Source: Chloroflexota bacterium (GTDB lineage Bacteria > Chloroflexota > Dehalococcoidia > DSTF01 > RBG-16-68-14). Taken from it: a stretch of DNA of 64,000 nucleotides. Within the stretch, counting starts at the first letter, position 1; every line of letters starts with the position of its first letter. The stretch lies in the NCBI GenBank assembly GCA_029262675.1, contig JAJCYW010000010.1, forward strand, positions 129,166 to 193,165, read 5' to 3'. The translations under genes and the position numbers were made by a program. This document shows positions 8,135 to 51,570 of this stretch, piece after piece. The notes beneath the pieces are model-generated. The model was not told where the DNA came from, searched no databases, and was given only the letters and a program-made list of their open reading frames with translations.

Positions 8135-8210
8135 CCGCCCGTGTCCTGCAGCGAACGGGGCTGTTTGCGGGCCTCGGCGCAGGAGAGTTGGACTGAGGAG
8201 GTGGCTTGTG

Positions 8211-8420
8211 ATGGCCAACGGATTGCCGGTTTGTCAGAAATGCAAGGCGGGGGACCTGGTTCCGCTTTCGGACTTTGGAAGCCAGGGGGCGGCGATTCAC
8301 TACAAGGCCTGGGCCTGTACCAACCCGGACTGCGGGTTCAACCTCAAGATCCGCAACGGCGACCTCTACGTTGACGAACCGATCAGCAGCGGGACTTCCC
8401 ACGTTCCGCGCAGCCGCTGA
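8211..8420 (+). CDS. Small zinc-ribbon protein (CxxC...CxxxxC), hypothetical
   Basis: ATG 8211 (or GTG 8208) with GAGGAGG 9 nt upstream. MANGLPVCQKCKAGDL...WACTNPDCGFNL. ORF-track start 8088 is an over-extension. Confidence 0.5.
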   Translation: MANGLPVCQKCKAGDLVPLSDFGSQGAAIHYKAWACTNPDCGFNLKIRNGDLYVDEPISSGTSHVPRSR

Positions 8421-8449
8421 TCCGCGCCGCTAGAGGTCTCTTAGTGCCC

Positions 8450-8514
8450 GCTAGCACCAGCTAGCGCCTAGCGCCTAGCGCCAAGCGCCAAGCGCCAAGC
8501 GATCGCTAGCGCCC
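8450..8514. repeat. Heptanucleotide microsatellite (CTAGCGC)x3-(CAAGCGC)x3 between convergent gene ends
   Basis: gctagcaccag ctagcgc ctagcgc ctagcgc caagcgc caagcgc caagcg atcgctagcgcc, read directly. Confidence 0.7.
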
Positions 8515-9759
8515 GATGCCCACGTATTGCATGCCTGCCGCCTCGACGGCGGAGCGGTTCAGCACGTTCCGTCCGTCGAGCAGCGCACGGCATCCGGCGA
8601 ACGACGTGAAGTCGAGGTCTCGGTACTCGCTGTGCCAGGCCTGCACGATGATGGCGTCGACGCCAGGCTGCGGCAAGCTCGCCACCGGCTGCAGCCCCAG
8701 GCCGCGCAGCTCGTCGCCTGAGAAGAGCGGGTCGTGGACGAGCGCCTTCGCGCCGCGTGCCCGCAGCGCTTCCACTAGCAGCAGCGCGCTGGAGTGGGCC
8801 GCCTCCTTCACGTTGGAGCGGTAGGACACCCCCAGGACGAGCACCGTCGCGTCGCGGAGAGAACCGAGCGCCCGCTCTAGTCGCGCGACGCCGTAGGCCG
8901 CCATCGCGTCGTTTGCGGCGCGGGCGGCGGCCGGCAACACCAAGCCCGCCTCGCGTGGCAGAAAGTGTGGGTAGACGGGGAGGCAGTGGCCGCCGACGCC
9001 GACGCCCGGCTGGTGCAGGTGCGCGTAGGGTTGGCTGTTTGCGGCACGGATCACCTCCGCCACGTCGACGCCGACAGTATCGGCGTAGCGCGCCAGCTCG
9101 CCGGCCAGCGCGATGTTGACGTCGCGGTAGATGCCCTCCGCCAGCTTCGCGAACTCTGCCGTCTCCGGATCCGGGACGCGCATGATGGCCGGCGCTTCGA
9201 GCGCCGCCTTGTAGAATGCCTCAGCCTGCGCCCAGCTCGGTTCGTCCAGCGCGCCGACGATCTTCGGGTACGACGTTAAGTCCTGGAAGATGCGGCCCGT
9301 CGTCAGCCGCTCCGGGCTCGCCGCGAGCCGTACGTCATCGACGCCGGCCAGCGCCGCGCCGACGCGGCCCCGCGTGGTCCCGACGGGGACTGTCGTTTCG
9401 ACGATAATGAGAGTGCCCGGCCGCAACCCCTGCCGAATCGACTCGACCGCCGCGTCCAGATTCGTGAAGTCGGGTGCGCGGTCGTCCGTGAGGCCGACCG
9501 GCACGATGATGACGGCCACGTCGCTGGCCGCCACGGCGGCGGCTGTGTCGGTCGTCGCGCGCAGCGTCCCGGCCGCGATGGCGGAAGCCAACCCCTCCTC
9601 CAGGCCGGCCTCGCCCGCTATCGGGCAGACGCCGGCGTTGATCTGCGCGACGCGGTCCGCGTTCGCGTCGCAGCCGGCGACCGTCAGGCCGCGTGATGCA
9701 TACTGCACCGCGAGCGGCAGGCCAACTTTGCCCAGGCCGACGACGCAGACGTTCATCAT
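8506..9759 (-). CDS. UDP-N-acetyl-D-glucosamine/mannosamine 6-dehydrogenase (WbpA/WecC-like nucleotide-sugar dehydrogenase)
   Basis: N-terminal Rossmann VCVVGLGKVGLPLA; catalytic region GVGVGGHCLPVYP; C-terminal UDP-binding domain. ATGA overlap with the upstream gene. Confidence 0.8.
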   Translation of the reverse strand: MMNVCVVGLGKVGLPLAVQYASRGLTVAGCDANADRVAQINAGVCPIAGEAGLEEGLASAIAAGTLRATTDTAAAVAASDVAVIIVPVGLTDDRAPDFTNLDAAVESIRQGLRPGTLIIVETTVPVGTTRGRVGAALAGVDDVRLAASPERLTTGRIFQDLTSYPKIVGALDEPSWAQAEAFYKAALEAPAIMRVPDPETAEFAKLAEGIYRDVNIALAGELARYADTVGVDVAEVIRAANSQPYAHLHQPGVGVGGHCLPVYPHFLPREAGLVLPAAARAANDAMAAYGVARLERALGSLRDATVLVLGVSYRSNVKEAAHSSALLLVEALRARGAKALVHDPLFSGDELRGLGLQPVASLPQPGVDAIIVQAWHSEYRDLDFTSFAGCRALLDGRNVLNRSAVEAAGMQYVGIGR

Positions 9760-10748
9760 GCCAGCCGCCCGCCGGCCACCGCGACGGGCTCGCCGCGCGC
9801 GGCCGACTCCACCAGCGCGTCCGCAACCCTCATCGCGGCGATTGCGTCGTCCGCGCCGACGAGAGGCGGCATATTGCGATGTGCCGCCTGGAGAAACGCG
9901 CTCAGCTCGACGCGCAGCGGTTCGTCTCGCTCGATTTCGATGACAACCGCGGCGGACGGTTCGGCGGCATCTGCCGTTTCGAAGAAACGCAACTCCTGCC
10001 TGATGTAGTCGGCCACGAACATCCCGTGCTCGCCGACGACCGTCAGCTCTCGCCGCTTCTCGGGCGTCAGCCAGTTTACGTCCAGCGCGCCGGTCACGCC
10101 GCCTTCAAAGCGCAGCACGCCCAGTACCGCGTCGTCCTGTTCGGTGCGGACGCCGCGCTGCGTCTCCGCGCGCGCCCGCGTGACCTCCTGGCCGGAGAGG
10201 TGGCGCATGACGTCGATATCGTGCGTCGCCAGGTCGTGGACGACGCCGACGTCGCGCTGCCGGTCGTGGAACGGCCCGACGCGCGTCGCCCGCATCTGCA
10301 GCAGCCGTCCCAACTCGCCGGCGTCGAGCCGCCGCTTTAGCTCCACGATCGCCGGGTTACAGCGTTCGATATGCCCAACAGCGAGCGGCGTCCCGCGGGC
10401 GTCCGCGGCGTCGCGCAGACGTGTCCCCTCGTCTACTGTCGCGGCCAGTGGTTTCTCCACGAGCACGGGTACCCGCCGCTCGATGCAGGCCAGCGCCGCG
10501 TCGTAGTGACTGAGCGTCGGGACTGCGATCGATACGGCGTCCGGGTGCGCCTCGTCCAGCATCTGCTCGTAGTCGGTGTAACCGGCCACCCTGGAGCCGT
10601 CGAGACGGTCTGCATCGTTATCGGCGACGGCGACGAGTTCGGCCTGAGGCAATTCACCGTAGACGCGCGCGTGGTTGCTGCCCATCGCGCCCAGCCCGAT
10701 CACGGCCACGCGGAGCCGCTCCGCCTCGGTGGAGCGGCCGTCAGGCAC
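9756..10748 (-). CDS. Gfo/Idh/MocA-family oxidoreductase (WbpB-like UDP-GlcNAcA 3-dehydrogenase)
   Basis: VAVIGLGAMGSNHARVY Rossmann; Gfo/Idh/MocA C-terminal. Position between the dehydrogenase and the aminotransferase. Confidence 0.75.
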   Translation of the reverse strand: MPDGRSTEAERLRVAVIGLGAMGSNHARVYGELPQAELVAVADNDADRLDGSRVAGYTDYEQMLDEAHPDAVSIAVPTLSHYDAALACIERRVPVLVEKPLAATVDEGTRLRDAADARGTPLAVGHIERCNPAIVELKRRLDAGELGRLLQMRATRVGPFHDRQRDVGVVHDLATHDIDVMRHLSGQEVTRARAETQRGVRTEQDDAVLGVLRFEGGVTGALDVNWLTPEKRRELTVVGEHGMFVADYIRQELRFFETADAAEPSAAVVIEIERDEPLRVELSAFLQAAHRNMPPLVGADDAIAAMRVADALVESAARGEPVAVAGGRLA

Positions 10749-11835
10749 GTCGCGCTCCAGAGGTCGATAGCGCAGCGTTCAACTGTGCCGCGACTGCCTC
10801 CAACTCCTCGTCCGTCAGGGCTGGGTGCACGGGCAGCGACAGCACCTCTTCGGCCGCGCGCTCCGCTTCCGGGAAGGAGCCGCCGATGCCGAGTTCTTGG
10901 TACAGCGGTTGCTGGTGCAGGCAGCGTTCGTAGTACGCGACCGACTCGATGTCATGGTCGCGCAGGTGCTGTTGGACCGCGTCGCGGCGACCGTCCGCCA
11001 CGCGCACCGTGTACTGCTGGTACACGTGCACGGCGTCCGCGTGCTCCTGCGGCGTCCGTACGCCCTCCAACAGTTCGTTTAGCCGGGCTGCGTTCTCGCG
11101 GCGGTTGGCGTTCCAGCCGTCCAGCTTCGCAAGCTGAACCTTGCCCAGCGCGGCCGCGATCTCCGTCATCCGGTAGTTGCCGCTCAGGATCTCCGTCACG
11201 TAACGCTCGTGCTCGCCTTGATTTCGCAGCACGCGGGCGCGCGCCGCGACATTTTCGTCGTCCGTGACGACCATGCCGCCCTCGCCCGTCGTAATACTCT
11301 TCGTGGCGTAGAAAGAAAAGCAGGCCGTGCCCGACGACCCGACCGTATTCCCGAGCCAGCTCGCGCCGATCGCCTGGCAGGCGTCTTCGATCACGAGTAG
11401 CCCGCATGTCTCGGCGAGGCGGTGTATCGCCGTCAGGTCGCATGGATGGCCGTAGAGGTGGACGGGCAGCAGCGCCCGCGTCTGCGGAGTCACAGCGGCC
11501 TCGGCCCGCTCGGCGTCCAGCGTGAAGTAGTCAGGCTCGATGTCGGCGAGGACGGGCCGCGCGCCCGCGAGCAGCACCGCGTTGGCGCTGGCCGCGAATG
11601 TGAACGCTGGCACGATCACCTCGTCGCCGGGGCCGATGCTGTGCGCGTGCAGTGCGACGACGAGCGCGGCGGTGCCGGACGACACCGCGACGGCGTGTCG
11701 CGCGCCCAGATGGTTCGCGAACGCGGCTTCGAACTCGGCCACGCGCGGGCCCTGCGCCAGGCGGCCGGAGCGGAGCGCCGCCAGCACGGCGCGCTCCTCC
11801 TCTTCGCCGATCTGCGGCTGGGCGATACGGATCAC
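10741..11835 (-). CDS. DegT/DnrJ/EryC1-family PLP aminotransferase (WbpE-like)
   Basis: GTG at 11835 ([13 protein letters not shown]...) forms a GTGA overlap with the upstream acetyltransferase stop. ...[18 protein letters not shown]...[14 protein letters not shown] (PLP-Lys region). ORF-track 428-aa version is over-extended. Confidence 0.8.
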
Positions 11836-12410
11836 GGCTGCGTCACGGCTGCCGGATCGAACGTGTAGCGACGGTCGCAGGCCGCGCAACGCCAATCGCC
11901 GTTGGTCCCGGCCAGCGGCCGGCCGCAGGAACAGACGTAGCCAGCCTGGCGGGCGGGCGTGCCAAGGACGAGCGCTTGGTCCGCCACGTTCCGCGTGACG
12001 ACTGCGCCCGCGCCGACCATCGCCCAACGCCCAATCACTACGCCGGGCAGAATCACGGCGCCCGCACCTATCGATGCGCCATAGGCGACCAGCGTCGGCT
12101 CAACCTGCCAGTCATCGTCGCCCAGCGGCTCGCCGTCCGGGTCGACGGCGCGGGGGTAGTGGTCGTTGCTGAAGCTGACGTGGGGGCCGATGAAGACGCC
12201 GTCCTCTATCGTGACGCCGCGGTAGAGCGAGGCGCGGTTCTGGATCTTGACGCGATTGCCGACAACGACGCCGCGGTCGACGTAGACGCCTTTGCCGATC
12301 ACGCATTCCGCGCCGATGACGGCGTCTTCGCGCACCTGCGCCTCGTGCCAGACTCGCGTGTCTGCACCGATCTGTGCGCTATCCGCGACGTTCGCCGTGG
12401 GATGGATCAT
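11832..12410 (-). CDS. Hexapeptide-repeat N-acetyltransferase (WbpD-like) with C-terminal Cys4 ribbon
   Basis: LbH repeats ([13 protein letters not shown]..., [25 protein letters not shown]); C-terminus CSCGRPL...CAACDRRY. Confidence 0.8.
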
Positions 12411-13458
12411 CGCGCAGAAACTCTACCATGCACTCGGCCGCGCGGCCATCGCCGAACACGGATGGTGGCTCGCCCGCCGGGGCTGTGCGCTTCGCCGCTT
12501 CGACGATGCGGTCGCTGTCGCTGCCGGCCAGCACGTTCCAGCCGCCGGCCGCCGTCTCCGGCCATTCAGTCTCCTCGCGCAGCGTCACGCAGGGCACGCC
12601 CAGCAGGAAGGCCTCTTTTTGGACGCCGCCGGAGTCCGTGAGGACGACGCGCGCGCTGCGTTCCAGCGCTAGCATCTCCACGTAGCCGACAGGATCGATT
12701 ACCCGCACGTTCTCGGCGACCGTCAGCCCCGCCGACTGCATGGCGGCGCGAACACGGGGGTGCGCCGGAAAGACTACTGTTTCGTCTAGCCGGCTAAATG
12801 CAGCCAGGATACGGCCCAACGCATCGGCGTCGTCGGTGTTCGCGGCGCGATGAACGGTGGCCAGCGCGTATTGGCCGGCTGTCAACTCCAGTCGCGAGAC
12901 GATGTCCGACTGCTCGGCCTGCGGCAGCTGTTCGCGGAGGGCGTCATACATGATGTCGCCGGTGAGGCGCGCCCTGTCGCCCAGGCCTTCCTTTGCGAGC
13001 TGGTCGACGGCCGTCTGCGTCGGGCAGAAGAGCAGGTCGGCGGCGTGGTCCGTCAGCACGCGGTTCAGCTCTTCGGGCATCGACCTGTCGAAGCTGCGCA
13101 GCCCGGCCTCCACGTGCGCCAGCGGCATACCGAGCTTCGCGGCGGCCAACGCGCCGGCCAGCGTCGAGTTCGTGTCGCCGAAGACGACGACCCAGTCGGG
13201 CGCTTCCTCTTGCAGCGCAGGCTCCAGCAGTTCCAGCATGCGGCCGGTCTGCTGTCCGTGCGGAGCGGAGCCGACGCCGAGTTGGTGGGCCGGGCGAGGC
13301 AGCGTCAGCGACTCGAAGAACACGTCTGACAGCTCGCGGTCGTAGTGCTGGCCGGTGTGGATCAGGACTTCGCTGATCTGCTGTGCCGCTAGCGCGCGGC
13401 TGAACACGGCGGCCTTGATGAACTGCGGCCGGGCCCCGACGACGGTGACGACCTTCAC
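12379..13458 (-). CDS. UDP-N-acetylglucosamine 2-epimerase (WecB/WbpI-like, non-hydrolysing)
   Basis: [19 protein letters not shown]...HTGQHYD...HVEAGLRS...DSGGVQKEA, the classic epimerase_2 family. Confidence 0.85.
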
Positions 13459-13467
13459 GAGATGGGG

Positions 13468-15372
13468 CTAGTTGTCGGAGAACGTGGGCGCCGCGTGGAC
13501 GTCACGCTGGTCGATGCGGGCGAGCGCGTGGATGCGCGCGGCCAGCTCGTCCCGGTCCTCGGGCAGGTCACGCTGCAGCTCCTCGATCTTGCCCATGATC
13601 TCATCAGAGGCGGTGGCCGGCGTGTCGGGGGCGAGAAAGATCTTGGGGTGCTCCGTCGCGAGGAACTTACCGCGCCTCTGCAACGGTTCTTCGCCAAGCT
13701 GCTCTCCGGGCCGCAGACCGGTGTAGACGATCTCGATATCTTTGCCGGGCTGGAAACCGCGGAGACGGATCAGCTTCTCCGCCAGGTCGCCGATCTTCAC
13801 TTCTTCGCCGAGGTCCATCACGAACACGGCGCTATCGCTCTGGAACGCCGCGGCCTGGACCAGCAGGCGGACGGCCTGCGGCGGAGACATGAAGTAGCGC
13901 ATAGCGCGGGCATCGGTGAGCATCACGGGCCCGCCGCGCTCGATCTGGCGGAGGAAGAGCGGGACGACGCTGCCTCGGCTGCCCATGACGTTGTGCAGGC
14001 GGACGGCGTTGAAGTGGGTCTTGCTGCGGCCCGCGAGCGCCGTCGCGACGAGCTCACCGATGCGCTTCGTCGCTCCGTAGACGCTGTCCAGGTCCGCTGC
14101 CTTGTTGCTGGAGACGAAGACGAACTGGTCCGCGCCGGCGGCGTCTGCCGCGCGGCAGAGGTTCATGGTGCCGACGACGTTGACGTGGAACGCCGCCTCC
14201 GGGTGCGCCTCGATGACGGGAATGTGCTTGTAAGCCGCGGTGTGGAAGATCACGTCCGGCCGCGCCGAGCGGAACGTGCGCTCAACCTGATCGCGATCGA
14301 CGATGTTGGTGATCCAGATGCGCGCTTCCAGGCCTTCGGCTGCCAGGTCGCGCTGCAGGTCGTAGAGGCCGGTCTCGTTGGTGTCCAGCAGGTGTACGAC
14401 GGCCGGTTCCAGAGCCAGCAACTGGTGTGCCAGCTCCTGGCCCAGATAGCCCGCGGCACCCGTGATCAGCACGCCCCGGTCGTGGACTAGCGCAGCGCAG
14501 GCGGCGAGATCGATCTTCGCCTCCTCCCGTCCGAGAAGGTCGTCGACGGTGATCTCGCGGAGCTGCGCGGCCGCGTCCGCGTGTACCATCTCCGGCACGC
14601 CGGGAACGGTTCTCACGCTGACGTCGGCCTGCTGGCAGAAGCCGACAAATTCCCGGATCGTGGCGCCGCTGGCTGACGACATCGCCAGCGCGACCATGTC
14701 CACTCCGCGTGTCGCGGCCAGCCGTGGGATGTCCTGTCGCGTGCCGAGGACGGGAAGCCCGTGGATCCGCTGCCCGCGCTTCTTCGGGTCGTCGTCCACA
14801 AAGCCGATCGGCTTGTACTGCCACTCTGGGTGCTGGAGGAACTCGCGCGCCAGCATCTGGCCGGTGTGGCCGGCCCCGGCGACGAGCACTTGCTGCGCCG
14901 GACCACCCCAGCCCGTGAAGGGCGTCTGGGAGCGCAGGCGCGGCCAGAGCTTCGCGACGCCCATCGAGAGGAAGATCAGTGCCGGGGCCATGCCCGTGAC
15001 GGTGAGCGGTATGTGTCGCGGCGTCAGGAAGACATTGATGCCGATCAGCAGGATCGACACGAGCCCGACGGCCGACGCCAGGCTCACTGCGTCTGCCAGG
15101 CTGGCGTACTGCCAGGCGGTGCGGTAGATGCCGAAGAAGTAGTTCCCCGCGATGTAGGCTAGGACGATCAGCGCGATCACCTGGCCGAAGAAGACCATCG
15201 AATCCCGCGGCACCGACCCGTCGAACTTCAACCCCAGCGCGGCCGCGTAGCAGGCGATGACGAGCAGCGCATCCAAGACCAGAACAGGCAGCAGACGCAG
15301 CCCGCGCTGCAGAACCGATGTGGAGGCGGCAGGTATCTGGCCTTCGTCGTCGTGTTGGGGTTGATCGGGCAT
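13468..15372 (-). CDS. Membrane-bound polysaccharide biosynthesis protein CapD/PglF/WbpM-like (UDP-GlcNAc 4,6-dehydratase)
   Basis: 634 aa: 4 N-terminal TM helices, then two Rossmann-like halves (VLVAGAGHTGQMLAREF; VLITGAAGYLGQELAHQLL); ...YGATKRIGE (YxxxK). Confidence 0.8.
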   Translation of the reverse strand: MPDQPQHDDEGQIPAASTSVLQRGLRLLPVLVLDALLVIACYAAALGLKFDGSVPRDSMVFFGQVIALIVLAYIAGNYFFGIYRTAWQYASLADAVSLASAVGLVSILLIGINVFLTPRHIPLTVTGMAPALIFLSMGVAKLWPRLRSQTPFTGWGGPAQQVLVAGAGHTGQMLAREFLQHPEWQYKPIGFVDDDPKKRGQRIHGLPVLGTRQDIPRLAATRGVDMVALAMSSASGATIREFVGFCQQADVSVRTVPGVPEMVHADAAAQLREITVDDLLGREEAKIDLAACAALVHDRGVLITGAAGYLGQELAHQLLALEPAVVHLLDTNETGLYDLQRDLAAEGLEARIWITNIVDRDQVERTFRSARPDVIFHTAAYKHIPVIEAHPEAAFHVNVVGTMNLCRAADAAGADQFVFVSSNKAADLDSVYGATKRIGELVATALAGRSKTHFNAVRLHNVMGSRGSVVPLFLRQIERGGPVMLTDARAMRYFMSPPQAVRLLVQAAAFQSDSAVFVMDLGEEVKIGDLAEKLIRLRGFQPGKDIEIVYTGLRPGEQLGEEPLQRRGKFLATEHPKIFLAPDTPATASDEIMGKIEELQRDLPEDRDELAARIHALARIDQRDVHAAPTFSDN

Positions 15373-15398
15373 CTGCGGGGTGGGCGTCCCTTCCGCGT

Positions 15399-15992: not shown

Positions 15993-17185
15993 TAGCCGCG
16001 CCCGGCGCGGCCGTGTGCGGTGACGATCTCGCGGACGGCGGTGGCGACACGCTCGACGGCGTCGTCGTCCATGCGCGGGTAGATCGGCAGGGAGATCAGG
16101 TTCTCGTAGACCTTCTCCGCGACCGGGAAGTCGCCAGGGCCAAGCGAGAGCGCGTCTCGATAGTATGGGTGGAGGTGGATCGGGATGAAGTGAACGGAGG
16201 TGCCGATGCCGCGCTCGCGCAGCTCGTCGATGAACTGCGCCCGGCTGATCGTCACGCGGTCGAGGTGGAAGCGGATCGGGTAGAGGTGCCAGGCGTGGAC
16301 GATCTCCTCTCGCACCGGCGGCCGGATCAGCTCTGGCACGTCCGCGAAGAGCGCGTCGTACTGACCGGCGATCTCCGTCCGTCGCGCCTGGAACGCGTCC
16401 AGCTTCCGTAGCTGGTGGATGCCCAGCGCCGCCTGGATGTCCGTCATCGCATAGTTGAATCCCGGCGCCAGCACTTGGTACTCGGCGCTGCCGCCCTTCG
16501 AATAGCGATTCCAGGCGTTCTTGCTCAGACCGTGCAGGCTGAGCAGCCGCACCTGGTCCGCTAGCTCCGCATCGTTGGTCGTGAGCATGCCGCCCTGACC
16601 GGTCGTAATCGGTTTGATCGGGTAGAAGCTGAAGACCGACGCGTCTGACAGCGTGCCGATGGGCCGGCCGCGGTAGCGAGCGCCGATGGCGTGCGCGGCG
16701 TCCTCGACCACGCGCAGGCCGTGCTTGTCGGCGAGCGACTGCAACTCGTCCATGCGACAGGGCTGCCCGCCGTAGTGCATTGGCATCACGGCCTTCGTCC
16801 TGGGCGTGATCAACCGCTCGATCTCGGCGATGTCGATGTTGTAGTCGTCCTCTCGCACGTCGGCCAGCACCGGCGTCGCGCCGGCATGGAGAATGACGTT
16901 GACCGTCGCCGCGAAGGTCAGCGGCGTCGTGATCACCTCGTCTCCGGGGCCGATGCCGGCCGCAAGCAGCGCTAGATGCATGCCTGCGGTGCAGGAAGAC
17001 AGCGCGACAGCGTGCGTCGCGCCGGTGACCTCGCGGAACGCCGCCTCAAACGCTTGGACTTTGGGTCCGCCTGTCAGCCAGCCAGAGCGAAGCGTATCGA
17101 CGACCTCATCGATCTCCTCCTGGCCGATCTCCGGCAGCGCGAACGGCAGGAACGGCTCGACAGCCGCCGGCGTTGGCTTGCTCAT
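15992..17185 (-). CDS. DegT/DnrJ/EryC1-family aminotransferase (PglE-like UDP-4-keto-6-deoxy-HexNAc aminotransferase)
   Basis: ATG 17185 (MSKPTPAAVEPF...) with GAGGAAGG RBS; ATGA overlap with the methyltransferase stop. ORF-track 537-aa version is over-extended. Confidence 0.8.
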   Translation of the reverse strand: MSKPTPAAVEPFLPFALPEIGQEEIDEVVDTLRSGWLTGGPKVQAFEAAFREVTGATHAVALSSCTAGMHLALLAAGIGPGDEVITTPLTFAATVNVILHAGATPVLADVREDDYNIDIAEIERLITPRTKAVMPMHYGGQPCRMDELQSLADKHGLRVVEDAAHAIGARYRGRPIGTLSDASVFSFYPIKPITTGQGGMLTTNDAELADQVRLLSLHGLSKNAWNRYSKGGSAEYQVLAPGFNYAMTDIQAALGIHQLRKLDAFQARRTEIAGQYDALFADVPELIRPPVREEIVHAWHLYPIRFHLDRVTISRAQFIDELRERGIGTSVHFIPIHLHPYYRDALSLGPGDFPVAEKVYENLISLPIYPRMDDDAVERVATAVREIVTAHGRAGRG

Positions 17186-17862
17186 CAGTTTGTCGCCTTC
17201 CTCACGGTTGCTAGCAGATGAGTGCGTAGCGCCGGCAGTCGTTCCAGCACGTGGCACAGACCTGGATTCCCTCCCAGCGCGCGTGTTATCGGCGGCGCCA
17301 GCGTGACGCGTTCGATTTCGACCGTCGTATCTGCGAACAACCGCCGCAACTCGGCGGCGGAGACGGGGCGCGTGCGGCGGTTGAATGGGTTGATCCAGAA
17401 GTCGTAGACGACCAAGAGGCCACCCGGCCGCAGTACGCGCAGCACCTCGGCCGCCGCAGCGCGGCGCACCTCGGCGTCCAGCATCGAACTGAGCGACGTG
17501 AACGCGAACGCCAGGTCGAACGTCTCGTTGCGGTAGGGCAGGGCGGCGGCGTCCGCGACGGCCACGGCCACACCGGCCGCCGACTGGCCTGCCCCGCCCA
17601 CCCACGCGGCGTCGATGTCGATGCCGGTCAGACGCTCGGCGTCCGCGCCGTGGCCGAGCAGCGTCCGGAGCAACGAGCCGCTGCCGCAGCCTACCTCCAC
17701 GACGCGCAGGCCGGAGAGGCCAGTGATACCGTTGTTCCGCAGCAGCGCGAGGAAGGCTGTGTCGCGAGATTCATGGATGTAACGCTCCGCGGCGCTCAGG
17801 TGCGCGTATAGGCCGGGAGATGGCCTGGCTGTTTCTAAATCAAGCGTGGCTGCGAGCGTCAC
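17185..17862 (-). CDS. Class I SAM-dependent methyltransferase
   Basis: VVEVGCGSGSLLRTLL...LPYRNETFDLAFAF...LRPGGLLVV (Methyltransf_11-like motifs I and post-I). GTG 17862 overlaps the GT2 stop (GTGA). Start uncertain. Confidence 0.65.
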   Translation of the reverse strand: MTLAATLDLETARPSPGLYAHLSAAERYIHESRDTAFLALLRNNGITGLSGLRVVEVGCGSGSLLRTLLGHGADAERLTGIDIDAAWVGGAGQSAAGVAVAVADAAALPYRNETFDLAFAFTSLSSMLDAEVRRAAAAEVLRVLRPGGLLVVYDFWINPFNRRTRPVSAAELRRLFADTTVEIERVTLAPPITRALGGNPGLCHVLERLPALRTHLLATVRKATN

Positions 17863-18887
17863 GGCGCCTCCGCCTCTCTTGGTTTTGCCACTGGCTGTCC
17901 GAGTAGGCGTCTCAGTGTCCCGTTGATGAAACCCAGACCGTAGGCGACGTGGATCGTCGCGAAGATGAAGGGAAGTCGAACCATGTGCCGCCAGCCGTGG
18001 CGTCGCGCGAGCAATAGCGAGCCGGCTGCGACGGTTGCCCCGTAGGCAGTCGCAAGCACCGCCAGCGGGAGGGCCAACAGGCCGCCGAATGCGGCCAGTA
18101 TCCCCGTTGCCAGCAGCGCCAGCACGAACGCCGCAGGCACCAGTTGGCGCACGCGCGTCTGGCGCGGATGGCGGCCGAGCACGACGACCTTGGCTTGGCC
18201 GTAGCCGAGGTACTGCCGCGCCAGCTCCCAGATCGACGTCCGGGCGTAGTAGGTGGAATGAATCGCCGGCGTCAGCAGGATGCGGCCGCCGGCGTCGCGG
18301 AGGCGGTAGTGCAGCTCGTCGTCCTCGCCGCCCTCGATCTCCGCGAACGGCCCGATACGGTCGAAAACGTCGCGGCGGTAGGCCGGGAACGCGACCGTGT
18401 CGGTCCACTGCTCGTCGTTGCTGTAGCGGAACACGGCGTTGCCGACGCCGAACGGCGACGAGATCGCTCGCGCGATCGATTCCCCTGTTGCTCCCTCGCC
18501 GACCGTGCTGATGGCACCGCCGACGACGTCGGCGCCCGTTCGTTGGAGGGCGGCGATGCACTGGCTGATGTAGCCCTCCGCAACCGTGGCGTGGGCGTCT
18601 ACGCGCGCGATGACGTCTCCCTGCGCGAACGCCAGGCCGATGTTGAGGCCGCGCGCCGTGTGCCGCCCGCGGTTCGCGACGACCTGCAGCAGAGGCAGCT
18701 TTTCGTGGAATCCGTTCGCGACCTCGCGCGAGCCGTCCTCCGACGCGCCATCCACGACGATCACCTCGAAAAGGTCCCCGGGGTAGTCCTGCGCGGCCAG
18801 GCTCTCCAGGCAGCGCGCGATGTGGCGCTCCTCGTTGCGCATGGGAACGATCACGGAGACGAAAGGAAGGTCGGTCGGATCAGACAT
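17859..18887 (-). CDS. Family 2 glycosyltransferase (GT2) with C-terminal TM helices
   Basis: VSVIVPMRNEERHIARCLESLAAQDYP...EVIVVDGASEDGS...DAH; C-terminal hydrophobic segment. Confidence 0.85.
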   Translation of the reverse strand: MSDPTDLPFVSVIVPMRNEERHIARCLESLAAQDYPGDLFEVIVVDGASEDGSREVANGFHEKLPLLQVVANRGRHTARGLNIGLAFAQGDVIARVDAHATVAEGYISQCIAALQRTGADVVGGAISTVGEGATGESIARAISSPFGVGNAVFRYSNDEQWTDTVAFPAYRRDVFDRIGPFAEIEGGEDDELHYRLRDAGGRILLTPAIHSTYYARTSIWELARQYLGYGQAKVVVLGRHPRQTRVRQLVPAAFVLALLATGILAAFGGLLALPLAVLATAYGATVAAGSLLLARRHGWRHMVRLPFIFATIHVAYGLGFINGTLRRLLGQPVAKPREAEAP

Positions 18888-18912
18888 GGATCACAGGTTG
18901 TAGCGTGTGGCG

Positions 18913-20013
18913 TCAGCCCTTCGTTACGGTAGCACGGGCGGTCTCTTCTGTAAACGACTCCACCAGTTGCGCGTAGATCCGCTCCATCTGTGCGGCGTTC
19001 TCCTCCCAGCGATAGCGCTCCTCCACCAGAGCTCGGCCGGCCGCGCCCAACGTCGCGCGCAGCTCCGCGTTCCCCACCAGCGTGAGGATCGATGCCGCCA
19101 GCGCGCCCGCGTCGCCCGGCGGCGTGAGGATGCCGGTGCGGCCGTCCGTGACGACGTCCGGGATGCCGTGGACGTCTGAGCCCACGACTGGCAGTGTCAT
19201 CGCCGCCGCTTCGATTGCGGCGACTCCGAAGCCTTCTGCCGTGGAGGGGATTGCGAAAATGTCTAACCCGGCCAGCGTCGACGGCACGTCGGCGTGTTCG
19301 ATTTCGCCCAGGAAGCCGACTGCCTCCACTATGCCGAGCTCTCCGGCGAGCCGCGTCAGCTTCTCGCGCTCGGGCCCGTCCCCGGCCAGCACGATGCGAA
19401 TCGGGACGCCGTCGCCGACTAGGCTGGCTGCCGCGCGCAGCAGTACGTCGAAGCCTTTCTCGGGAGATAGCCGACCGACGGAGCCGACGACAATCGGCCC
19501 ACCTGTCGTCTCGCGCGGCTGCGGACGGAACCGGTCGAGGTCGACGCCGTACGGCACGACGGTCACCGGCGTCGCTTCCGGCGCGTAGGGCAGCGTCGCG
19601 TTGGCCAGCCGCAGGCCGGTGGCAGTTATCTGGTCGGCCTTGGCCAGTGCGTGGCGAGTTATGCGGCCGTGGAGGGGTGAAATGCCGGGCGCTTCGAGGA
19701 TATCCGTCCCCCAGACCGACGTCAGCAGTGGCCTGCGGCCACAGAGCGTAGCCAGGAAGCCGTAGCTCGTCAGGTGCATCGCGTGGAGCAGGTCGGGCTG
19801 GAGTTGCCGCACCAGCCGCCGCACCCGCCGGGCGTGCGCCAGATACCGCAGCTTGCCCAGCCGTTCCAGGCCGTGGATGTGGTGGACCTCCGCGCCCTCG
19901 ATCGCCGCCGGCCGGAACGAGACGACGTGCGCCTCCCAGCCCGCGCTGGCGAAGTGCTCTACCCAGCGGCGGGTGTGGATGTAGGGTGCATCAGCCAGGT
20001 AGACGACGCGCAT
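18913..20013 (-). CDS. Family 4 glycosyltransferase (GT4, Glycos_transf_1)
   Basis: MRVVYLADAPYIHTRRWVEHF...; C-terminal EX7E-like region (GRLSPEKG..., EGFGVAAIEAAAMTLPVVGS). Confidence 0.8.
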   Translation of the reverse strand: MRVVYLADAPYIHTRRWVEHFASAGWEAHVVSFRPAAIEGAEVHHIHGLERLGKLRYLAHARRVRRLVRQLQPDLLHAMHLTSYGFLATLCGRRPLLTSVWGTDILEAPGISPLHGRITRHALAKADQITATGLRLANATLPYAPEATPVTVVPYGVDLDRFRPQPRETTGGPIVVGSVGRLSPEKGFDVLLRAAASLVGDGVPIRIVLAGDGPEREKLTRLAGELGIVEAVGFLGEIEHADVPSTLAGLDIFAIPSTAEGFGVAAIEAAAMTLPVVGSDVHGIPDVVTDGRTGILTPPGDAGALAASILTLVGNAELRATLGAAGRALVEERYRWEENAAQMERIYAQLVESFTEETARATVTKG

Positions 20014-20073
20014 CGTAGTTGGAGTGTACGCCGCGGGCGCTGGCCTGCCAACTGGGGCTACGGCGCTACGCCG

Positions 20074-21288
20074 CTATGCCTCGCTTGCCCGTCCCGCCAG
20101 TCTGTAATACCAGGCCTCCATCCGTGCCATGTTCGTCTCGTTGACGCCGTACTCCTCGACGAACGGCCGGTTGGCTTCCGCCGCGCTACGGCGCAGACCG
20201 TCGTCGCCCAGCGCGCGGCTGATCGCGTCTGCCAACGCCCCTTCGTCTCGGGGCGGCACGCGCAGACCGGTCACGCCGTCGTCGACCAGCTCCTGCTGGC
20301 TCGGCAGGTCGCTAACGATGGGGAAGCAGCCGGCCGCCTGCGCCTGCAGCAGCGCGACGGACGTACCATCTGACGACGGCACCGAGACGAAGACGTGGGC
20401 TTCGGCCAGACGGCTGCGGAACTCGTCCTGCCCCAGCGTGCCGGTGAAATCCGCCGCGCCGCCCAGGCCCAGCCGCTCCGCCTCCCGCTCCAGTCCCGCG
20501 CGCAAGCGGCCGTCTCCCGCCACGACGAGGCGCACGCGCGGCATCCGGTCGCGGACGCGTACCATGGCGCGAAGGATCACGTCGATGTTGTAGAGCGGCG
20601 TATCGAGCGAGCGCGTGCTGATCACGGTTGGCGGCCGGGCCGGGTCGGGCGGGTGCGCGTTCACTGACAGTGGGGCGCCTTCAACAAACGCGCGGTCGAC
20701 GCCTAAGACGATCTGCTGCACGCGCGCGCGGTCGATGCCCAGGCGTGTCACCATCTCTCGCGCCATGTGGCGGTTGTTCGCGGTCGCTAGGTCGCAGCGG
20801 CGCAGGACGAATCGCGCCAGCGCGCGGTTGAGCGGCGAGTTCGCCGCCTCGACGAGCACATCCGACCCCCAGGCCGACACGACGTAAGGACGGAAGTTGG
20901 CCGCCGTCGCGTAGAGGCCGTGCTCGACGACGAAGTGCGCGTGCAGCACCTCGGGCGCGATTGACCGGACGGTGGCCTCGATGCCCGCGCGGCGGTAGCG
21001 CACCAGGTTCGCGATGCGCTGTACGCCGGGCGGTAACAGCGCGGCCAGTCGAGACGCGCTGGCGTTTGGGCCACCCGCACGACGATCGCCGCCGCCGGAC
21101 GGTCGCAGTACGTGGACGGTCACGCCTTCCGGTGGCCGCGCCGGCGTGTAGAACGAGACGCCGTGCATCTCGTGGCCGCGCGCGACGAAGTAGCGCATCC
21201 AGCTCTGCGTATGCACGCCGTCCAGGTCGCCAGCGACGCAGATGCGCAGGCGGCGGTCAGGTTCCAGCGGTTCGATGTCCGACTTCAC
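20074..21288 (-). CDS. Family 4 glycosyltransferase (GT4)
   Basis: GTG 21288 (VKSDIEPLEPDRRLRICVAGDLDGVHTQSWMRYFVARGHEMHGVSF...) forms a GTGA overlap with the flippase stop. Upstream part of the 667-aa ORF is a shadow of the flippase gene. Confidence 0.75.
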   Translation of the reverse strand: MKSDIEPLEPDRRLRICVAGDLDGVHTQSWMRYFVARGHEMHGVSFYTPARPPEGVTVHVLRPSGGGDRRAGGPNASASRLAALLPPGVQRIANLVRYRRAGIEATVRSIAPEVLHAHFVVEHGLYATAANFRPYVVSAWGSDVLVEAANSPLNRALARFVLRRCDLATANNRHMAREMVTRLGIDRARVQQIVLGVDRAFVEGAPLSVNAHPPDPARPPTVISTRSLDTPLYNIDVILRAMVRVRDRMPRVRLVVAGDGRLRAGLEREAERLGLGGAADFTGTLGQDEFRSRLAEAHVFVSVPSSDGTSVALLQAQAAGCFPIVSDLPSQQELVDDGVTGLRVPPRDEGALADAISRALGDDGLRRSAAEANRPFVEEYGVNETNMARMEAWYYRLAGRASEA

Positions 21289-22634
21289 GATTGCTTCCCG
21301 GCCAGGCGGCGCTGCGCCGCCTCGACGTAGCGGCGCAGGTCGTCGCCGCGGACGACGAGCGCGCCGGCCATCGGGTTGCCGGAGAGCCGCCCGTATGCCA
21401 CCAGCGACAGCGCGAAGTGGACGCCGTAGGCGATAGTCGACGCGATCGCCGCGCCGGTGACGTCGAACGCCGGGATCAGGAGGAAGTCGGCGATCAGCGT
21501 CACCGCCAGCGCCACCACAGTTATCAGGCTGTTCGTCAGCGGCTTTCCCTGGCTGAAGATGTAGCTGCTGAGGATCTTCGAGCCCGCCAGCGCCACTGTC
21601 CCCGGCAACAGCCACAGCAGCGGGACAACCGACTCCTCGAACTCCGCGCCGAACAGCCTTTCCACCAGCCACGGCGAAACGGCGGCGAGCGCTAGCGCCC
21701 CGAGGGCGCTGATGAAGAGCGTATTCCGGCAGACGATGGGCGTCGTGCGCGCGGCCTCGTCCACTGGGGCGGCCGTGAGGCGCGGCAACAGCACGACCGC
21801 CACGGCGTTGGCGAGGAACCAGACGCTCTGGCTGAGCGTGACGCTGACCGCGTAGACGCCGACGCCCGCCGTGCTCACAAAGAGCAGGACGATGTACTGG
21901 TCGATACGGTAGTTCAGCAACTGCACCAGGTTGCCCACCTGGCCCTGCATCCCGAATCGCACCTGTCGCGCCAGCGACGCCACGTCGACTCGCAGCAGCG
22001 CAGCCGGCTGCATCCCCCGGGCGCCTAGCAGCGCGAACGCAAGCAGCGTCGCCACGAGCGAACCGCCGCTCCAGCACAGCACGGCCGACGTCGTATCGAT
22101 TTCGCCGAACGCGGCGACGACGCCCAGCAGGCCTAGCAGCGTCACGGGCTGCGCCAGCACCACGGCATTCATTGCGCCGAAGCGGTTTTCGCCCTGCAGG
22201 ATGTTGGTGAGGATATAGAAGTTGACGAAGAGCGGCACCGCAAATGCGAACGCCCAGATCGGCGCGTCGTTGTCGAGCAGCTCGTCGCCGAACAGTGGCC
22301 AGGCGATCAGCACCAGCGCGCCGCTCACCAGCGCCGCAAGCAGTGTGACGTGCTGGCCGTTAGCGACGACGCGCGGCAGCGGCATCGTGCCCTTGCCAAG
22401 CTCGTAGATCGCGCTGACGCCGAGGCCGAGGCCGAGCACTGCCTGCGCGATCGACGCAGACAGCAGGAAGAGCGCGTACGTGCCGCGTCCCTCCGCGCCC
22501 AGCGCCCGCGCGATGATGACGCCAATAACGAACGCCAGCGCCGCGTTGGCGACGGTGGCGATGAAGACGAAGTTGACGTTGGTGAGAAAACCGCTGTCGC
22601 CTCGCGGCGTCGCTTGCGGTGCGGCGGCGGTCAC
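21285..22634 (-). CDS. wzx: Oligosaccharide/polysaccharide flippase (Wzx-like, MOP/MATE superfamily)
   Basis: 449 aa, ~12 predicted TM helices, polysaccharide_biosynth-type N-terminus (FLTNVNFVFIATVANAALAFVIGVIIARALG). Confidence 0.75.
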   Translation of the reverse strand: MTAAAPQATPRGDSGFLTNVNFVFIATVANAALAFVIGVIIARALGAEGRGTYALFLLSASIAQAVLGLGLGVSAIYELGKGTMPLPRVVANGQHVTLLAALVSGALVLIAWPLFGDELLDNDAPIWAFAFAVPLFVNFYILTNILQGENRFGAMNAVVLAQPVTLLGLLGVVAAFGEIDTTSAVLCWSGGSLVATLLAFALLGARGMQPAALLRVDVASLARQVRFGMQGQVGNLVQLLNYRIDQYIVLLFVSTAGVGVYAVSVTLSQSVWFLANAVAVVLLPRLTAAPVDEAARTTPIVCRNTLFISALGALALAAVSPWLVERLFGAEFEESVVPLLWLLPGTVALAGSKILSSYIFSQGKPLTNSLITVVALAVTLIADFLLIPAFDVTGAAIASTIAYGVHFALSLVAYGRLSGNPMAGALVVRGDDLRRYVEAAQRRLAGKQS

Positions 22635-22635
22635 G

Positions 22636-23904
22636 CTACCGGCTCCCCGCGGCGGCCGACGCCGCCGGCGCGGCGAGCGCTTCGATGGCGTCCAGTTCCG
22701 CCGCCATGCGTTCGTCCCAGGTCCAGAACTCGCGCTCCGCGTAGGCCCGTGCCGCCGCGCCGAGGCGCTGCCGCGAATCGCTGTCGCCCGCCAGAGCGAC
22801 CACGGCCTGCGCGATTGCCGGCGGATCGCCGGAGGGCAGCAGCCGTCCCGTTTCGCCGTCGCGGATCAGCTCGCCAGTCGCGCCGGCATCGACTGTCACG
22901 ATAGCCATGCCGCAGGTCATTGCCTCCAACAGCGGGTTGCCGACGTTGGAGAGGTCGGCGGGCGCGAGGAAGACGTCGCTGGCGTGCGTGTAGTCGAGGA
23001 CGGCCTCCTGCGGCACGGCTCCGGCGAATCGCACGCGCTCCGCGACGCCTAGGTCACGCCCCTGGCGTTCCAGGCGTTCACGCTCTTCCCCGTCGCCGAC
23101 GATCAGCAGAAGCGCGTGCGGGATTTCGCGAAGGATCGCGGGCATCGCGGCGATCGCGCGGTCGACGCGCTTCCAGGCGGCCAGGCGCGAGGCGGTCAGC
23201 AGTACAAACGCCTCGTCTGGCAGTCCAAGTTGCGCGCGCCGCTCCGCGCGTTCGGCCGGCGTCGCGGGTCGCAACCTGCCGAGGTCGAGACCGTTGCGCC
23301 AGAAGCGCAGCTTGTCGCCGAGGCCACCGTTCACGCGGCGCAGCACGTCGTCGCCGCGGGTGCCGTCGTTCGTCATTACGTAGAGGTCGGCCGGTAGCCG
23401 CAGGGCGCGAAACTCTTCGCACTTCCGTATCCGGCCGATAAGGCTATCGAGCACGGGATGCAGCACTGTGCCCTGGAATCGGGCAATTCTTGGCAACGCC
23501 GCGTTCAGCTTCCCGACAGCCAGCGCGCCGTGCACCTCGTACGCGTAGAGCAGGTCGACGTGCTCCCGTTCTAGCACTTGCCTCGCGCGTCGGGCGGCTA
23601 ACAGGGGAAACAGCAACGCGAAGCGCAGCTTCTGGTCGACTGTGACGAGGGGGCCAGGCAGCGGCAGGCCGGCGTTGCGGAGGCTGGGGAGGTGGAACCG
23701 CTCGAACGTGACGCCGGGTATCTGCGGCGCCTCCGAGGCCGGGTCTGGATGAGGAGTGAACGCGTTCGCGCCGACGGTTGTAGTGATATACGTCACGCGA
23801 TGACCGCGTTCACCGTATGCGCGGAGCGTGCGATACAGTGTAGGAGCGCCGCCGCGGCCCGGAAGGGTCCACACCTCCAGGGCGCTCACCATCAGTACGT
23901 GCAT
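22636..23904 (-). CDS. Family 4 glycosyltransferase (GT4)
   Basis: ATG 23904 (MHVLMVSALEVW...) with GGAGGCG RBS. Glyco_trans_4-like N-terminus and Glycos_transf_1 C-terminus (GDGEERERLE..., EAMTCGMAIVTVDAGATGELI). Confidence 0.75.
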   Translation of the reverse strand: MHVLMVSALEVWTLPGRGGAPTLYRTLRAYGERGHRVTYITTTVGANAFTPHPDPASEAPQIPGVTFERFHLPSLRNAGLPLPGPLVTVDQKLRFALLFPLLAARRARQVLEREHVDLLYAYEVHGALAVGKLNAALPRIARFQGTVLHPVLDSLIGRIRKCEEFRALRLPADLYVMTNDGTRGDDVLRRVNGGLGDKLRFWRNGLDLGRLRPATPAERAERRAQLGLPDEAFVLLTASRLAAWKRVDRAIAAMPAILREIPHALLLIVGDGEERERLERQGRDLGVAERVRFAGAVPQEAVLDYTHASDVFLAPADLSNVGNPLLEAMTCGMAIVTVDAGATGELIRDGETGRLLPSGDPPAIAQAVVALAGDSDSRQRLGAAARAYAEREFWTWDERMAAELDAIEALAAPAASAAAGSR

Positions 23905-24001
23905 CGTTCGCCTCCAGCGCAGTGTAGCCGCAGGATGGTAGGGGGGCAACGGTCTCGACACTGTGCGGAGCGGTCTGTTACCATTCGGCGTACTCCTAGG
24001 T

Positions 24002-51534: not shown

Positions 51535-51570
51535 CGTGTAACCTCCTTGCATATCTCGCTTCGAGACGCG

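Follow-up and report, generated by a model that had tools for sequence, protein, structure and literature searches.

We analysed a 64,000-nt stretch of contig JAJCYW010000010.1 (positions 129,166 to 193,165 of the forward strand; assembly GCA_029262675.1) from a Chloroflexota bacterium of the class Dehalococcoidia. The whole stretch is called the window below. It has a GC content of 66%, and the genomes closest to it are metagenome-assembled genomes (MAGs) of Chloroflexota/Dehalococcoidia. The window contains a surface-glycan operon of 14 intact, co-directional genes on the minus strand, extending from 8506 to about 23904 (upper limit 23961 with a GTG start) and numbered g1 to g14 in the 5' to 3' direction of that strand (Table 1). 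Genes were delimited from the open reading frame (ORF) listing, stop-to-stop frames and profiles of GC content at third codon positions (GC3), and families were assigned by Pfam and NCBIfam searches. None of the 14 translations with the chosen starts contains an internal stop, and the set is a real operon. ORF calls and domain searches bore out a preliminary description of the window, made from the sequence alone, which had listed 14 minus-strand genes with this domain content. We think it likely that this chromosomal operon assembles an undecaprenyl-diphosphate-linked heteroglycan containing 2,3-diacetamido-2,3-dideoxy-D-mannuronic acid (ManNAc3NAcA) for a single-membrane envelope.

The 14-gene operon and its relatives

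The genes are tightly packed. Neighbouring genes overlap at 8 of the 13 junctions, by 4 nt at g2/g3, g5/g6, g11/g12 and g13/g14, by 8 nt at g12/g13, by 1 nt each at g6/g7 and g7/g8, and by 32 nt at g10/g11. The other five junctions are gaps of 1, 9, 25, 26 and 60 nt, the last being the widest. The preliminary description had reported overlaps of 4-8 nt at almost every junction; they occur at only 5 of the 13. The start of g3 was chosen from the GC3 profile and the 4-nt overlap. For g1 the most likely start is ATG 23904, because GGAGG lies 6 nt upstream and conservation with the closest related locus (L002, see below) begins at MHVLM; the alternative GTG 23961 is unlikely. Between the likely g1 start and the divergent tRNA-Pro(CGG) gene lie 97 nt (23905-24001; the called start in L002 is 10 nt away). 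The tRNA gene stands at the 5' end of the operon and is read in the opposite direction, so the operon does not end just before it, as had been described; the arrangement is the same in L002. A promoter scan of the interval from g1 to tRNA-Pro gave no minus-strand promoter, the sole promoter-like match being on the plus strand (23955-23984), and the operon promoter may extend into the tRNA gene or be located past it. A terminator scan found none 3' of g14.

Table 1. Genes of the operon and neighbouring features in the window.
Feature	Coordinates	Strand	Length and support
g1, GT4 glycosyltransferase	22636..23904	-	422 aa (441 aa from GTG 23961); Pfam Glycos_transf_1 1.2e-34
g2, Wzx-like MOP-family flippase	21285..22634	-	449 aa, 11 hydrophobic segments; Pfam Polysacc_synt 41.1 bits (cut-off 28.2)
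g3, GT4 glycosyltransferase	20074..21288	-	404 aa; Pfam Glyco_trans_1_4, Glycos_transf_1, Glyco_trans_4_2
g4, GT4 glycosyltransferase	18913..20013	-	366 aa; Pfam Glycos_transf_1 1.7e-39
g5, GT2 glycosyltransferase	17859..18887	-	342 aa; Pfam Glycos_transf_2 1.2e-29
g6, class I S-adenosylmethionine (SAM)-dependent methyltransferase	17185..17862	-	225 aa; Pfam Methyltransf_25, Methyltransf_11
g7, DegT-family sugar aminotransferase, predicted C4	15992..17185	-	397 aa; Pfam DegT 1.2e-137
g8, small monotopic phosphoglycosyltransferase, predicted initiating enzyme	15399..15992	-	197 aa; Pfam Bac_transf 1.3e-58
g9, membrane PglF/WbpM-like short-chain dehydrogenase/reductase (SDR)	13468..15372	-	634 aa; 4 transmembrane segments + CoA_binding_3 + Polysacc_synt_2 (Pfam)
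g10, UDP-GlcNAc3NAcA-type 2-epimerase (predicted WbpI/WlbD function)	12379..13458	-	359 aa; Epimerase_2; PDB 8sxv 7.5e-117
g11, WlbB/WbpD-like left-handed beta-helix (LbH) 3-amino-sugar N-acetyltransferase	11832..12410	-	192 aa; PDB WlbB 3mqg 1.1e-37
g12, DegT-family aminotransferase, predicted C3 (WbpE function)	10741..11835	-	364 aa; Pfam DegT 5.2e-124
g13, GFO/IDH/MocA sugar 3-dehydrogenase, archaeal/7bvj type	9756..10748	-	330 aa; NCBIfam 1.5e-85
g14, nucleotide-sugar 6-dehydrogenase, HexNAc/ManNAc-type	8506..9759	-	417 aa; TIGR03026 320 bits (cut-off 190)
CxxC...CxxC zinc-ribbon-like protein, between g14 and response regulator	8211..8420	+	69 aa
OmpR-type response regulator	7177-7866	-	Pfam
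HAMP/HisKA histidine kinase	5628-7214	-	Pfam
tRNA-Pro(CGG)	24002-24079	+	
TPR protein	24274-25140	+	
ABC-2 exporter pair, NodI/NodJ or DrrA/DrrB type	25275-26980	+	
Alpha/beta-hydrolase and adenylate/guanylate cyclase fusion	28975-30360	+	
tRNA-Ser pair (GGA, CGA)	43550-43903	-	180 nt apart
Secreted dockerin proteins	46083-60720	-	Dockerin_1 domains, DUF11 repeats, long (P/T)n linkers

In L002 all 14 genes occur in the same order, together with tRNA-Pro, the upstream TPR gene and the downstream two-component system, and the g9 homologue is 86% identical. Loci L005 (GCA_964406605), L006 (on a 2.3-Mb contig) and L009 (on a 772-kb contig) keep the same core at 43-76% protein identity: GT4, GT2, methyltransferase (absent from L006), aminotransferase, phosphoglycosyltransferase, SDR, epimerase, acetyltransferase, aminotransferase, 3-dehydrogenase and 6-dehydrogenase. 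A gene order common to L002, L005, L006 and L009 at 43-87% protein identity indicates vertical conservation of the locus within a Chloroflexota lineage. L004 (Ohtaekwangia, 22% identity), which also came from the genome scan, contains an unrelated SDR and was set aside.

The uronic-acid module

Genes g10 to g14 encode the same five enzyme classes that lie adjacent to one another in the Wbp/Wlb systems (WbpA/B/E/D/I of Pseudomonas aeruginosa, WlbA-D of Bordetella and five ORFs of Thermus thermophilus HB27), and the preliminary description had read them as the five-enzyme route to UDP-ManNAc3NAcA. The top Protein Data Bank (PDB) match of g10 is the T. thermophilus 2-epimerase of UDP-2,3-diacetamido-2,3-dideoxyglucuronic acid (UDP-GlcNAc3NAcA; 8sxv), ahead of UDP-GlcNAc 2-epimerases at 2.7e-86 or weaker. 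Thoden et al. reported that the Thermus enzyme accommodates the 3-acetamido group and the 6-carboxylate by means of Ala18, Tyr96 and Trp307, where UDP-GlcNAc epimerases have Leu/Met, His/Gln and Arg (PMC10622841). At these positions g10 has Ala16, Phe94 and the Trp of REETEW, a pattern of the 3-acetamido type, and the Ala/aromatic/Trp combination recurs in the epimerases of L002, L006, L009 and L010. The acetyltransferase g11 aligns with WlbB (3mqg) over residues 2-183 of its 192, that is, over its full length, and its next matches are other 3-amino-sugar N-acetyltransferases. By these residues and alignments, g10 is well supported as a predicted UDP-GlcNAc3NAcA-type 2-epimerase and g11 as a predicted WlbB-like acetyltransferase.

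The two oxidoreductases and the aminotransferase are less specific. In PDB searches g14 matched 4r16 (2e-60) and Cap5O (1.3e-49), with UDP-glucose dehydrogenases at 4e-33 or weaker; its nearest characterised enzymes are UDP-ManNAc dehydrogenases and not TviB-type UDP-GlcNAc 6-dehydrogenases, and the GGHC motif with the catalytic Cys is present. The preliminary description had allowed for a UDP-glucose dehydrogenase here, and these matches place g14 instead with enzymes acting on N-acetylhexosamines (HexNAc) such as ManNAc. The predicted role of g14 in the pathway is supported at the family level only, and the same holds for g12, which matched WbpE at 5e-61 and was outscored by 7b0d, perosamine synthase, DesV and ArnB; its C3 role is predicted from its location between the 3-dehydrogenase and the acetyltransferase. 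For g13 the best match is the NCBIfam model of archaeal UDP-GlcNAc 3-dehydrogenases, at 287 bits and under the model cut-off of 450. Its PDB match to 7bvj (2.3e-24) is stronger than that to WlbA (3q2k, only 2.3e-15), and neither WbpB nor Thermus WlbA is among its PDB matches at 1e-10 or better. The five-enzyme route had been described with a WbpB-like 3-dehydrogenase. This part did not hold, as g13 belongs to another, archaeal/7bvj-like subgroup of the GFO/IDH/MocA family and is not a WbpB/WlbA orthologue; the route itself is upheld by the epimerase residues and the full-length WlbB-like acetyltransferase, and at the family level by the 6-dehydrogenase and the aminotransferase.

Diacetamido uronic acids are also made in Methanococcus maripaludis, where the archaellin N-glycan pathway (MMP0350-0353, MMP0357) employs homologous enzymes. 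The 3-dehydrogenase g13 resembles this archaeal pathway in its best NCBIfam match; unlike M. maripaludis, the operon is bacterial, has a predicted initiation by a monotopic phosphoglycosyltransferase on undecaprenyl phosphate, and has no AglB. The module g10-g14 is of mosaic ancestry, which goes beyond routine annotation. Its predicted end product, UDP-ManNAc3NAcA, is well supported. In the proposed scheme, g14, g13, g12, g11 and g10 would convert UDP-GlcNAc to UDP-ManNAc3NAcA by 6-oxidation, 3-oxidation, 3-transamination, 3-N-acetylation and, lastly, 2-epimerisation of the uronate. Neither the reaction order known from Pseudomonas nor a WbpB-style coupling to 2-oxoglutarate is supported for these genes: with a g13 that is no orthologue of WbpB/WlbA and a g12 without particular likeness to WbpE, the steps may follow another order than in the Pseudomonas pathway. 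Whatever the scheme, 6-oxidation should come before epimerisation, since the carboxylate-accommodating residues are kept in g10.

A natural replacement of the module was found in L003. This locus keeps the block of glycosyltransferase, methyltransferase, aminotransferase, phosphoglycosyltransferase and SDR genes and lacks the 3-dehydrogenase, the C3 aminotransferase and the acetyltransferase. In their place, on the opposite strand, stand an epimerase that scores 423 bits on the wecB model and has Met, Gln and Arg at the three specificity positions, and a WecC-like dehydrogenase with 375-386 bits on UDP-ManNAc dehydrogenase models; g10 and g14 of the window are only 37% and 35% identical to this pair. 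WecB/WecC (MnaA/MnaB) supply UDP-ManNAcA for teichuronic acids and the enterobacterial common antigen. L003 uses such a pair, and the window has instead an epimerase with 3-acetamido-specific residues. The replacement of the cassette by WecB/WecC suggests that the glycan needs a uronate of the ManNAcA type, and the lineage appears to feed either ManNAcA or ManNAc3NAcA into an otherwise conserved assembly line. As a separate observation, L003 encodes a TIR-domain protein of the CAP12/Pycsar effector type (7627-8823; Pfam 1.8e-20) between its PglF-like gene and the WecB/WecC pair, exactly at the position of the five-gene cassette.

The initiating module and the altered motif of g9

Genes g9, g8 and g7 correspond in kind to the adjacent membrane SDR, DegT aminotransferase and phosphoglycosyltransferase of about 200 aa in Campylobacter jejuni pgl (PglF/E/D/C) and Bacillus subtilis EpsC/N/M/L. 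The preliminary description had called them PglF-, PglC- and PglE-like and had proposed, in cautious wording, initiation on a bacillosamine-like 4-amino-4,6-dideoxy-HexNAc. Unlike the pgl/Eps systems for N,N'-diacetylbacillosamine (diNAcBac), the operon has no PglD/EpsM. Its sole acetyltransferase, g11, is of the WlbB type, with no PglD structure among its matches, and no other PglD-type 4-N-acetyltransferase was found in the operon. The aminotransferase g7 is not specifically PglE-like: it lies nearer ArnB/PseC, with ArnB as its best solved relative (PDB, 2.7e-102) and a score on the NCBIfam PseC model (424.8 bits) barely over the cut-off of 423.5.

The phosphoglycosyltransferase g8 matches PglC (PDB 8e37) at 3.3e-35; its Asp-Glu dyad and PRP motif (GPRP) align, and a hydrophobic segment starts at residue 3, all as expected of a small monotopic enzyme. 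The diNAcBac fingerprint of PglC consists of GLLLP, an aromatic box (Y118/Y122/W150/F154/F197) and a C-terminal extension of about 14 aa (Anderson et al.; PMC10186338). In g8 the place of GLLLP is taken by QSMQVP with an insertion of 14 aa behind it; Leu, Tyr, Tyr and Met occupy the aromatic-box positions, so that 2 of the 4 alignable residues are missing; and the chain stops at about PglC residue 187 in the alignment, without the extension that bears Phe197. The PglC-like label therefore stands for the architecture and not for these substrate-linked features.

The SDR g9 is PglF-like in architecture and fold (PDB PglF 4e-57; AlphaFold model with pLDDT 85 and a TM-score of 0.83-0.89 to PglF). 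Where PglF has S-T-D-K...M-x3-K, g9 reads V-S-S-N-K-A-A-D-L-D-S-V-Y-G-A-T-K, with Ser422-Asn423-Lys424 and Tyr432 in place of Thr395-Asp396-Lys397 and Met405; it scores slightly higher against the PglF variant structures T395S and M405Y, in keeping with its Ser and Tyr. According to a review of nucleotide-sugar dehydratases, PglF/WbpM have T-D-K...M, inverting PseB/FlaA1 and Pen have [ST]-D-K...Y, and acid/base residues differ among the dehydratase classes (PMC8987622). The S-N-K...Y of g9 matches none of the motif classes tabulated there. What had been described as a 4,6-dehydratase thus has the fold and architecture of one, with the catalytic Asp replaced by Asn.

We surveyed this motif in the 150 most similar 50%-identity cluster representatives of a 1.8-billion-protein library and in the 120 closest 90%-clusters. 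Asp-Lys is kept in 147/150 of the former, and Met or Leu replaces Tyr in 137/150. Among the latter, [ST]-N-K-A-A-[DE]-[LI]-D is found in the 63 clusters at about 66% identity and above (64 sequences when g9 is counted); Asn is present in all of them, and 61/64 sequences have acquired an Asp or Glu four positions further on. A further 56 clusters, at about 62% identity and below, have [ST]-D-K-A-V-x-P-D-N. Within the syntenic group, more distant members show S-H-A, S-H-T or S-S-K, and a sister clade has the canonical T-D-K...Y in the same context of aminotransferase, phosphoglycosyltransferase and SDR genes. On these alignments the Asp-to-Asn substitution is a lineage-specific, coupled change fixed in the clade, and it may represent either a relocated catalytic acid or an altered activity. 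In the AlphaFold model, a short turn following strand beta-5 holds Asn423 and a loop holds Asp427, a placement that is neutral on relocation of the acid.

The g7-g9 module is thus Pgl-like in architecture only, three defining features of diNAcBac systems (PglD, the g8 fingerprint and the g9 motif) having failed. The predicted priming sugar is probably not N-acetylated at C4 because there is no PglD, and it may not be a 4,6-dideoxy sugar in view of the missing Asp of g9. It is probably a 4-amino HexNAc derivative. The earlier proposal is kept to that extent, without its bacillosamine-specific part. In the scheme, g9 and g7 would yield a UDP-4-amino(-6-deoxy)-HexNAc-type sugar, which g8 would transfer to undecaprenyl phosphate. 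Glycans primed by 2-acetamido-4-amino-2,4,6-trideoxygalactose (AATGal) include Bacteroides fragilis PSA (WcfR/WcfS) and the Streptococcus pneumoniae type 1 polysaccharide, whose loci carry a Wzy polymerase. The operon is like them in the predicted 4-amino first sugar without 4-N-acetylation and in the small phosphoglycosyltransferase, a likeness by description and not by sequence orthology. We also considered whether both modules feed one sugar, for example a 2,3,4-triamino pentose. L003 argues against this, and for two independent modules, because it keeps g9/g8/g7 without g11-g13.

Two alternatives bear on the chemistry of these modules. In the uronate pathway, C3 oxidation, amination and acetylation might take place on UDP-GlcNAc first, followed by 6-oxidation and a final epimerisation, with g13 using free NAD+ and not the WbpB-type recycling of 2-oxoglutarate. 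This order is a tangible possibility, given that g13 is far nearer the archaeal model and 7bvj than WlbA, with WbpB not among its matches, and that g14 is nearest the UDP-ManNAc dehydrogenases. The g13 match is, however, under the model cut-off, sequence alone cannot order the earlier steps, and the small Ala and aromatic residue of g10, which fit a C6 carboxylate, would place C6 oxidation before epimerisation under either order. In the initiating module, g9 might be a plain C4 oxidoreductase/epimerase or an ArnA-like oxidative UDP-uronate decarboxylase, in which case the primer would be a 4-amino-4-deoxy sugar lacking the 6-deoxy group and might be a pentose. The invariant Asn among close relatives of g9 against the Asp-Lys of nearly all 50%-cluster representatives would agree with this, as would a motif outside the tabulated classes (PMC8987622), the His-Ala, His-Thr or Ser-Lys of distant syntenic members, the ArnB likeness of g7, and a uronate-forming dehydrogenase in all five loci read through that end (L002, L003, L005, L006 and L009). 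We nevertheless consider it unlikely, as the fold and overall sequence of g9 are nearest PglF, the new downstream Asp/Glu could assume the acid role, classes with differing acid/base residues are on record (PMC8987622), and the sister clade keeps the canonical motif in the same gene context; moreover, g7 stays beside g9 in the same five loci, as expected of a dehydratase-aminotransferase pair.

Assembly, neighbouring genes and fate of the glycan

One phosphoglycosyltransferase and four glycosyltransferases suggest a unit of about five sugars. From gene content, synteny, family memberships and specificity-residue patterns we infer that the GT2 g5 and the GT4 enzymes g4, g3 and g1 would extend the chain to this length, at least one of them adding ManNAc3NAcA, that g6 would methylate one residue, and that g2 would flip the product across the membrane to its outer side. 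The acceptor would be encoded outside the window, candidates being an S-layer or secreted protein, peptidoglycan (giving a secondary cell-wall polymer) or a lipid. The PDB matches of g6 are limited to the SAM-binding core, from which no substrate can be deduced, and the gene is absent from L006, as noted above. Homologues of g5 are named ExoA-like in some sources. A GtrB/ArnC-type polyprenyl-phosphate sugar synthase is a possible reading of g5 in view of its two C-terminal hydrophobic segments (residues 246 and 268) and of the PMT_2 gene near its L008 orthologue, but the ArnC model gives only 27 bits and the ExoA-like names point elsewhere.

The preliminary description had noted the lack of a polymerase and of a chain-length regulator in the window, and our scans agree. 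We scanned the hydropathy of all ORFs of 150 aa or more in the six frames of the window. Besides g9, four ORFs have at least four membrane segments, namely Wzx, an MMPL transporter (1176-3488), the ABC-2 permease and a low-GC3 ORF at 60889, and no unassigned polytopic membrane protein was detected. Pfam searches of the 20 neighbouring genes gave no Wzy, Wzz, LCP, ligase (WaaL/Wzy_C) or oligosaccharyltransferase. No Wzy or Wzz was found among the called genes in the stretches read of L005, L006, L008, L009 and L010, and the syntenic clusters of L002 and L003 contain no additional large ORF.

Two related loci give hints at the fate of the glycan. The L008 cluster contains a PMT_2-family GT-C glycosyltransferase gene (5839-7563) near a GT2 gene orthologous to g5, with a 54-aa ORF between them, and also encodes a Wzx, the TPR protein and an ABC pair resembling Wzm/Wzt. 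The PMT_2 gene of L010 (1606-4575) adjoins a gene for a Cohesin-domain protein, both 5-8 kb from the set of aminotransferase, phosphoglycosyltransferase, SDR, epimerase and acetyltransferase genes. These PMT_2/Cohesin genes are the sole hints at glycosylation of an S-layer or of Pro/Thr linkers; no PMT_2 gene was found in the window. The preliminary description had suggested a short oligosaccharide, for instance for S-layer or protein glycosylation, and had pointed to cohesin/dockerin proteins with Pro/Thr-rich linkers as targets. The Dockerin_1 domains and linkers are indeed present at 46-59 kb (in a 953-aa protein of this run the (P/T)n linkers occupy residues 190-244 and 643-714), Cohesin gave no Pfam match among the window proteins scanned, and nothing ties the dockerin proteins to the operon. 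Several proteins of the run share an N-terminal motif consisting of a signal and then ...SGGPEM..., and another dockerin protein is encoded at 27186-28109. In the Chloroflexota, a surface filament has been reported as probably O-glycosylated (PMC12488501). Here the product may serve protein O-glycosylation or form a secondary wall polymer linked to peptidoglycan.

Several points weigh against the proposed scheme as a whole: g13 is non-orthologous to WbpB/WlbA and g12 lacks specific likeness to WbpE; g8 lacks the diNAcBac fingerprint; a single acetyltransferase is available for two amino groups; g9 lacks, by alignment, the catalytic Asp of every described class of UDP-GlcNAc 4,6-dehydratase; and a transferase to the final acceptor was not found within the window. 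As to the product, the same chemistry might serve a long polymer (capsule, exopolysaccharide or a teichuronic-type polymer) whose Wzy, chain-length regulator and LCP ligase are encoded elsewhere. A Wzx flippase is present, the region examined covers about 64 kb of a 326-kb contig, and the secondary cell-wall polymer of Geobacillus stearothermophilus NRS 2004/3a contains ManNAc3NAcA, all of which would fit a polymer. We hold it to be rather unlikely, since no Wzy-like polytopic protein was seen in the window or in the stretches read of the five loci named above, and the L008 cluster has a PMT_2 GT-C transferase instead of Wzy; a glycan transferred as a single unit is the one reading that requires no unseen genes. 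A lipopolysaccharide O-antigen as in Pseudomonas or Bordetella would agree with the fact that ManNAc3NAcA is best known from O-antigens (PMC10622841). This is very improbable, however, and the earlier statement that the product is not an O-antigen is supported, because the source belongs to the Chloroflexota, whose members, including Dehalococcoidia, are described as having a monoderm envelope of peptidoglycan and/or an S-layer and no outer-membrane genes (PMC10284905). Moreover, WaaL, Wzy and Wzz were not found within the window. Unlike horizontally acquired O-antigen islands, and unlike the Wbp/Wlb O-antigen loci, the operon does not have a GC content below that of its surroundings (0.67-0.70 against 0.60-0.69 in the rest of the window).

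On the 3' side of the operon, the 69-aa zinc-ribbon-like protein is found at the corresponding place in L002, L003, L005, L006 and L009 with 78-89% identity, a conservation that tops that of every operon protein. Its gene keeps to the sugar-dehydrogenase end even without the two-component system (L009) or with the cassette replaced (L003); its membership in the glycan system is uncertain. A minus-strand ORF at 7905-8402 (GC3 about 0.6, no Pfam match) is a shadow of this gene. The two-component system adjoins the cluster in L002, L003, L005 and L006, is absent in L009, and is a possible regulator of the operon. On the 5' side, just past tRNA-Pro, lies the gene of a TPR protein that has cluster-adjacent orthologues in L002 (71%) and L008 (48%) and whose C-terminal two-thirds lack a Pfam domain. 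The ABC-2 exporter pair begins 1.3 kb from the operon start. It was considered as a Wzm/Wzt-like glycan exporter and rejected, being NodIJ/DrrAB-like and not orthologous to the pair in the L008 cluster (28% identity between the ATPases and none between the permeases). Elsewhere in the window are an ORF in which an alpha/beta-hydrolase domain is fused to an adenylate/guanylate cyclase catalytic domain, and two tRNA-Ser genes (Table 1).

By its logic this is an ordinary, textbook Wzx-type glycan operon, composed throughout of known families, in a little-studied phylum, and current concepts are unchanged by it. Three features go beyond routine annotation: the exchange of ManNAcA and ManNAc3NAcA cassettes, the mosaic five-enzyme module and the Asn-for-Asp clade of PglF-like enzymes. 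A bolder view, which we put forward as speculative, is that the g9 clade embodies a previously undescribed catalysis of 4,6-dehydration, or a new activity, as C4 oxidase, epimerase or decarboxylase, leading to an undescribed priming sugar, that the locus makes the main envelope or S-layer glycan, and that the cassette swap is serotype-like. Hardly any envelope glycan of the Chloroflexota has been characterised, and the majority of these bacteria have not been cultured. For them the locus predicts a methylated glycan of about five sugars that would contain ManNAc3NAcA and be primed by a 4-amino sugar. The diacetamido-uronate pathway, otherwise met in archaeal N-glycans and in the O-antigens of Gram-negative bacteria, is firmly established in this monoderm phylum; the WecB/WecC swap in L003 confirms the published specificity residues of the epimerases, and the Asn-for-Asp clade poses a specific question of enzymology.

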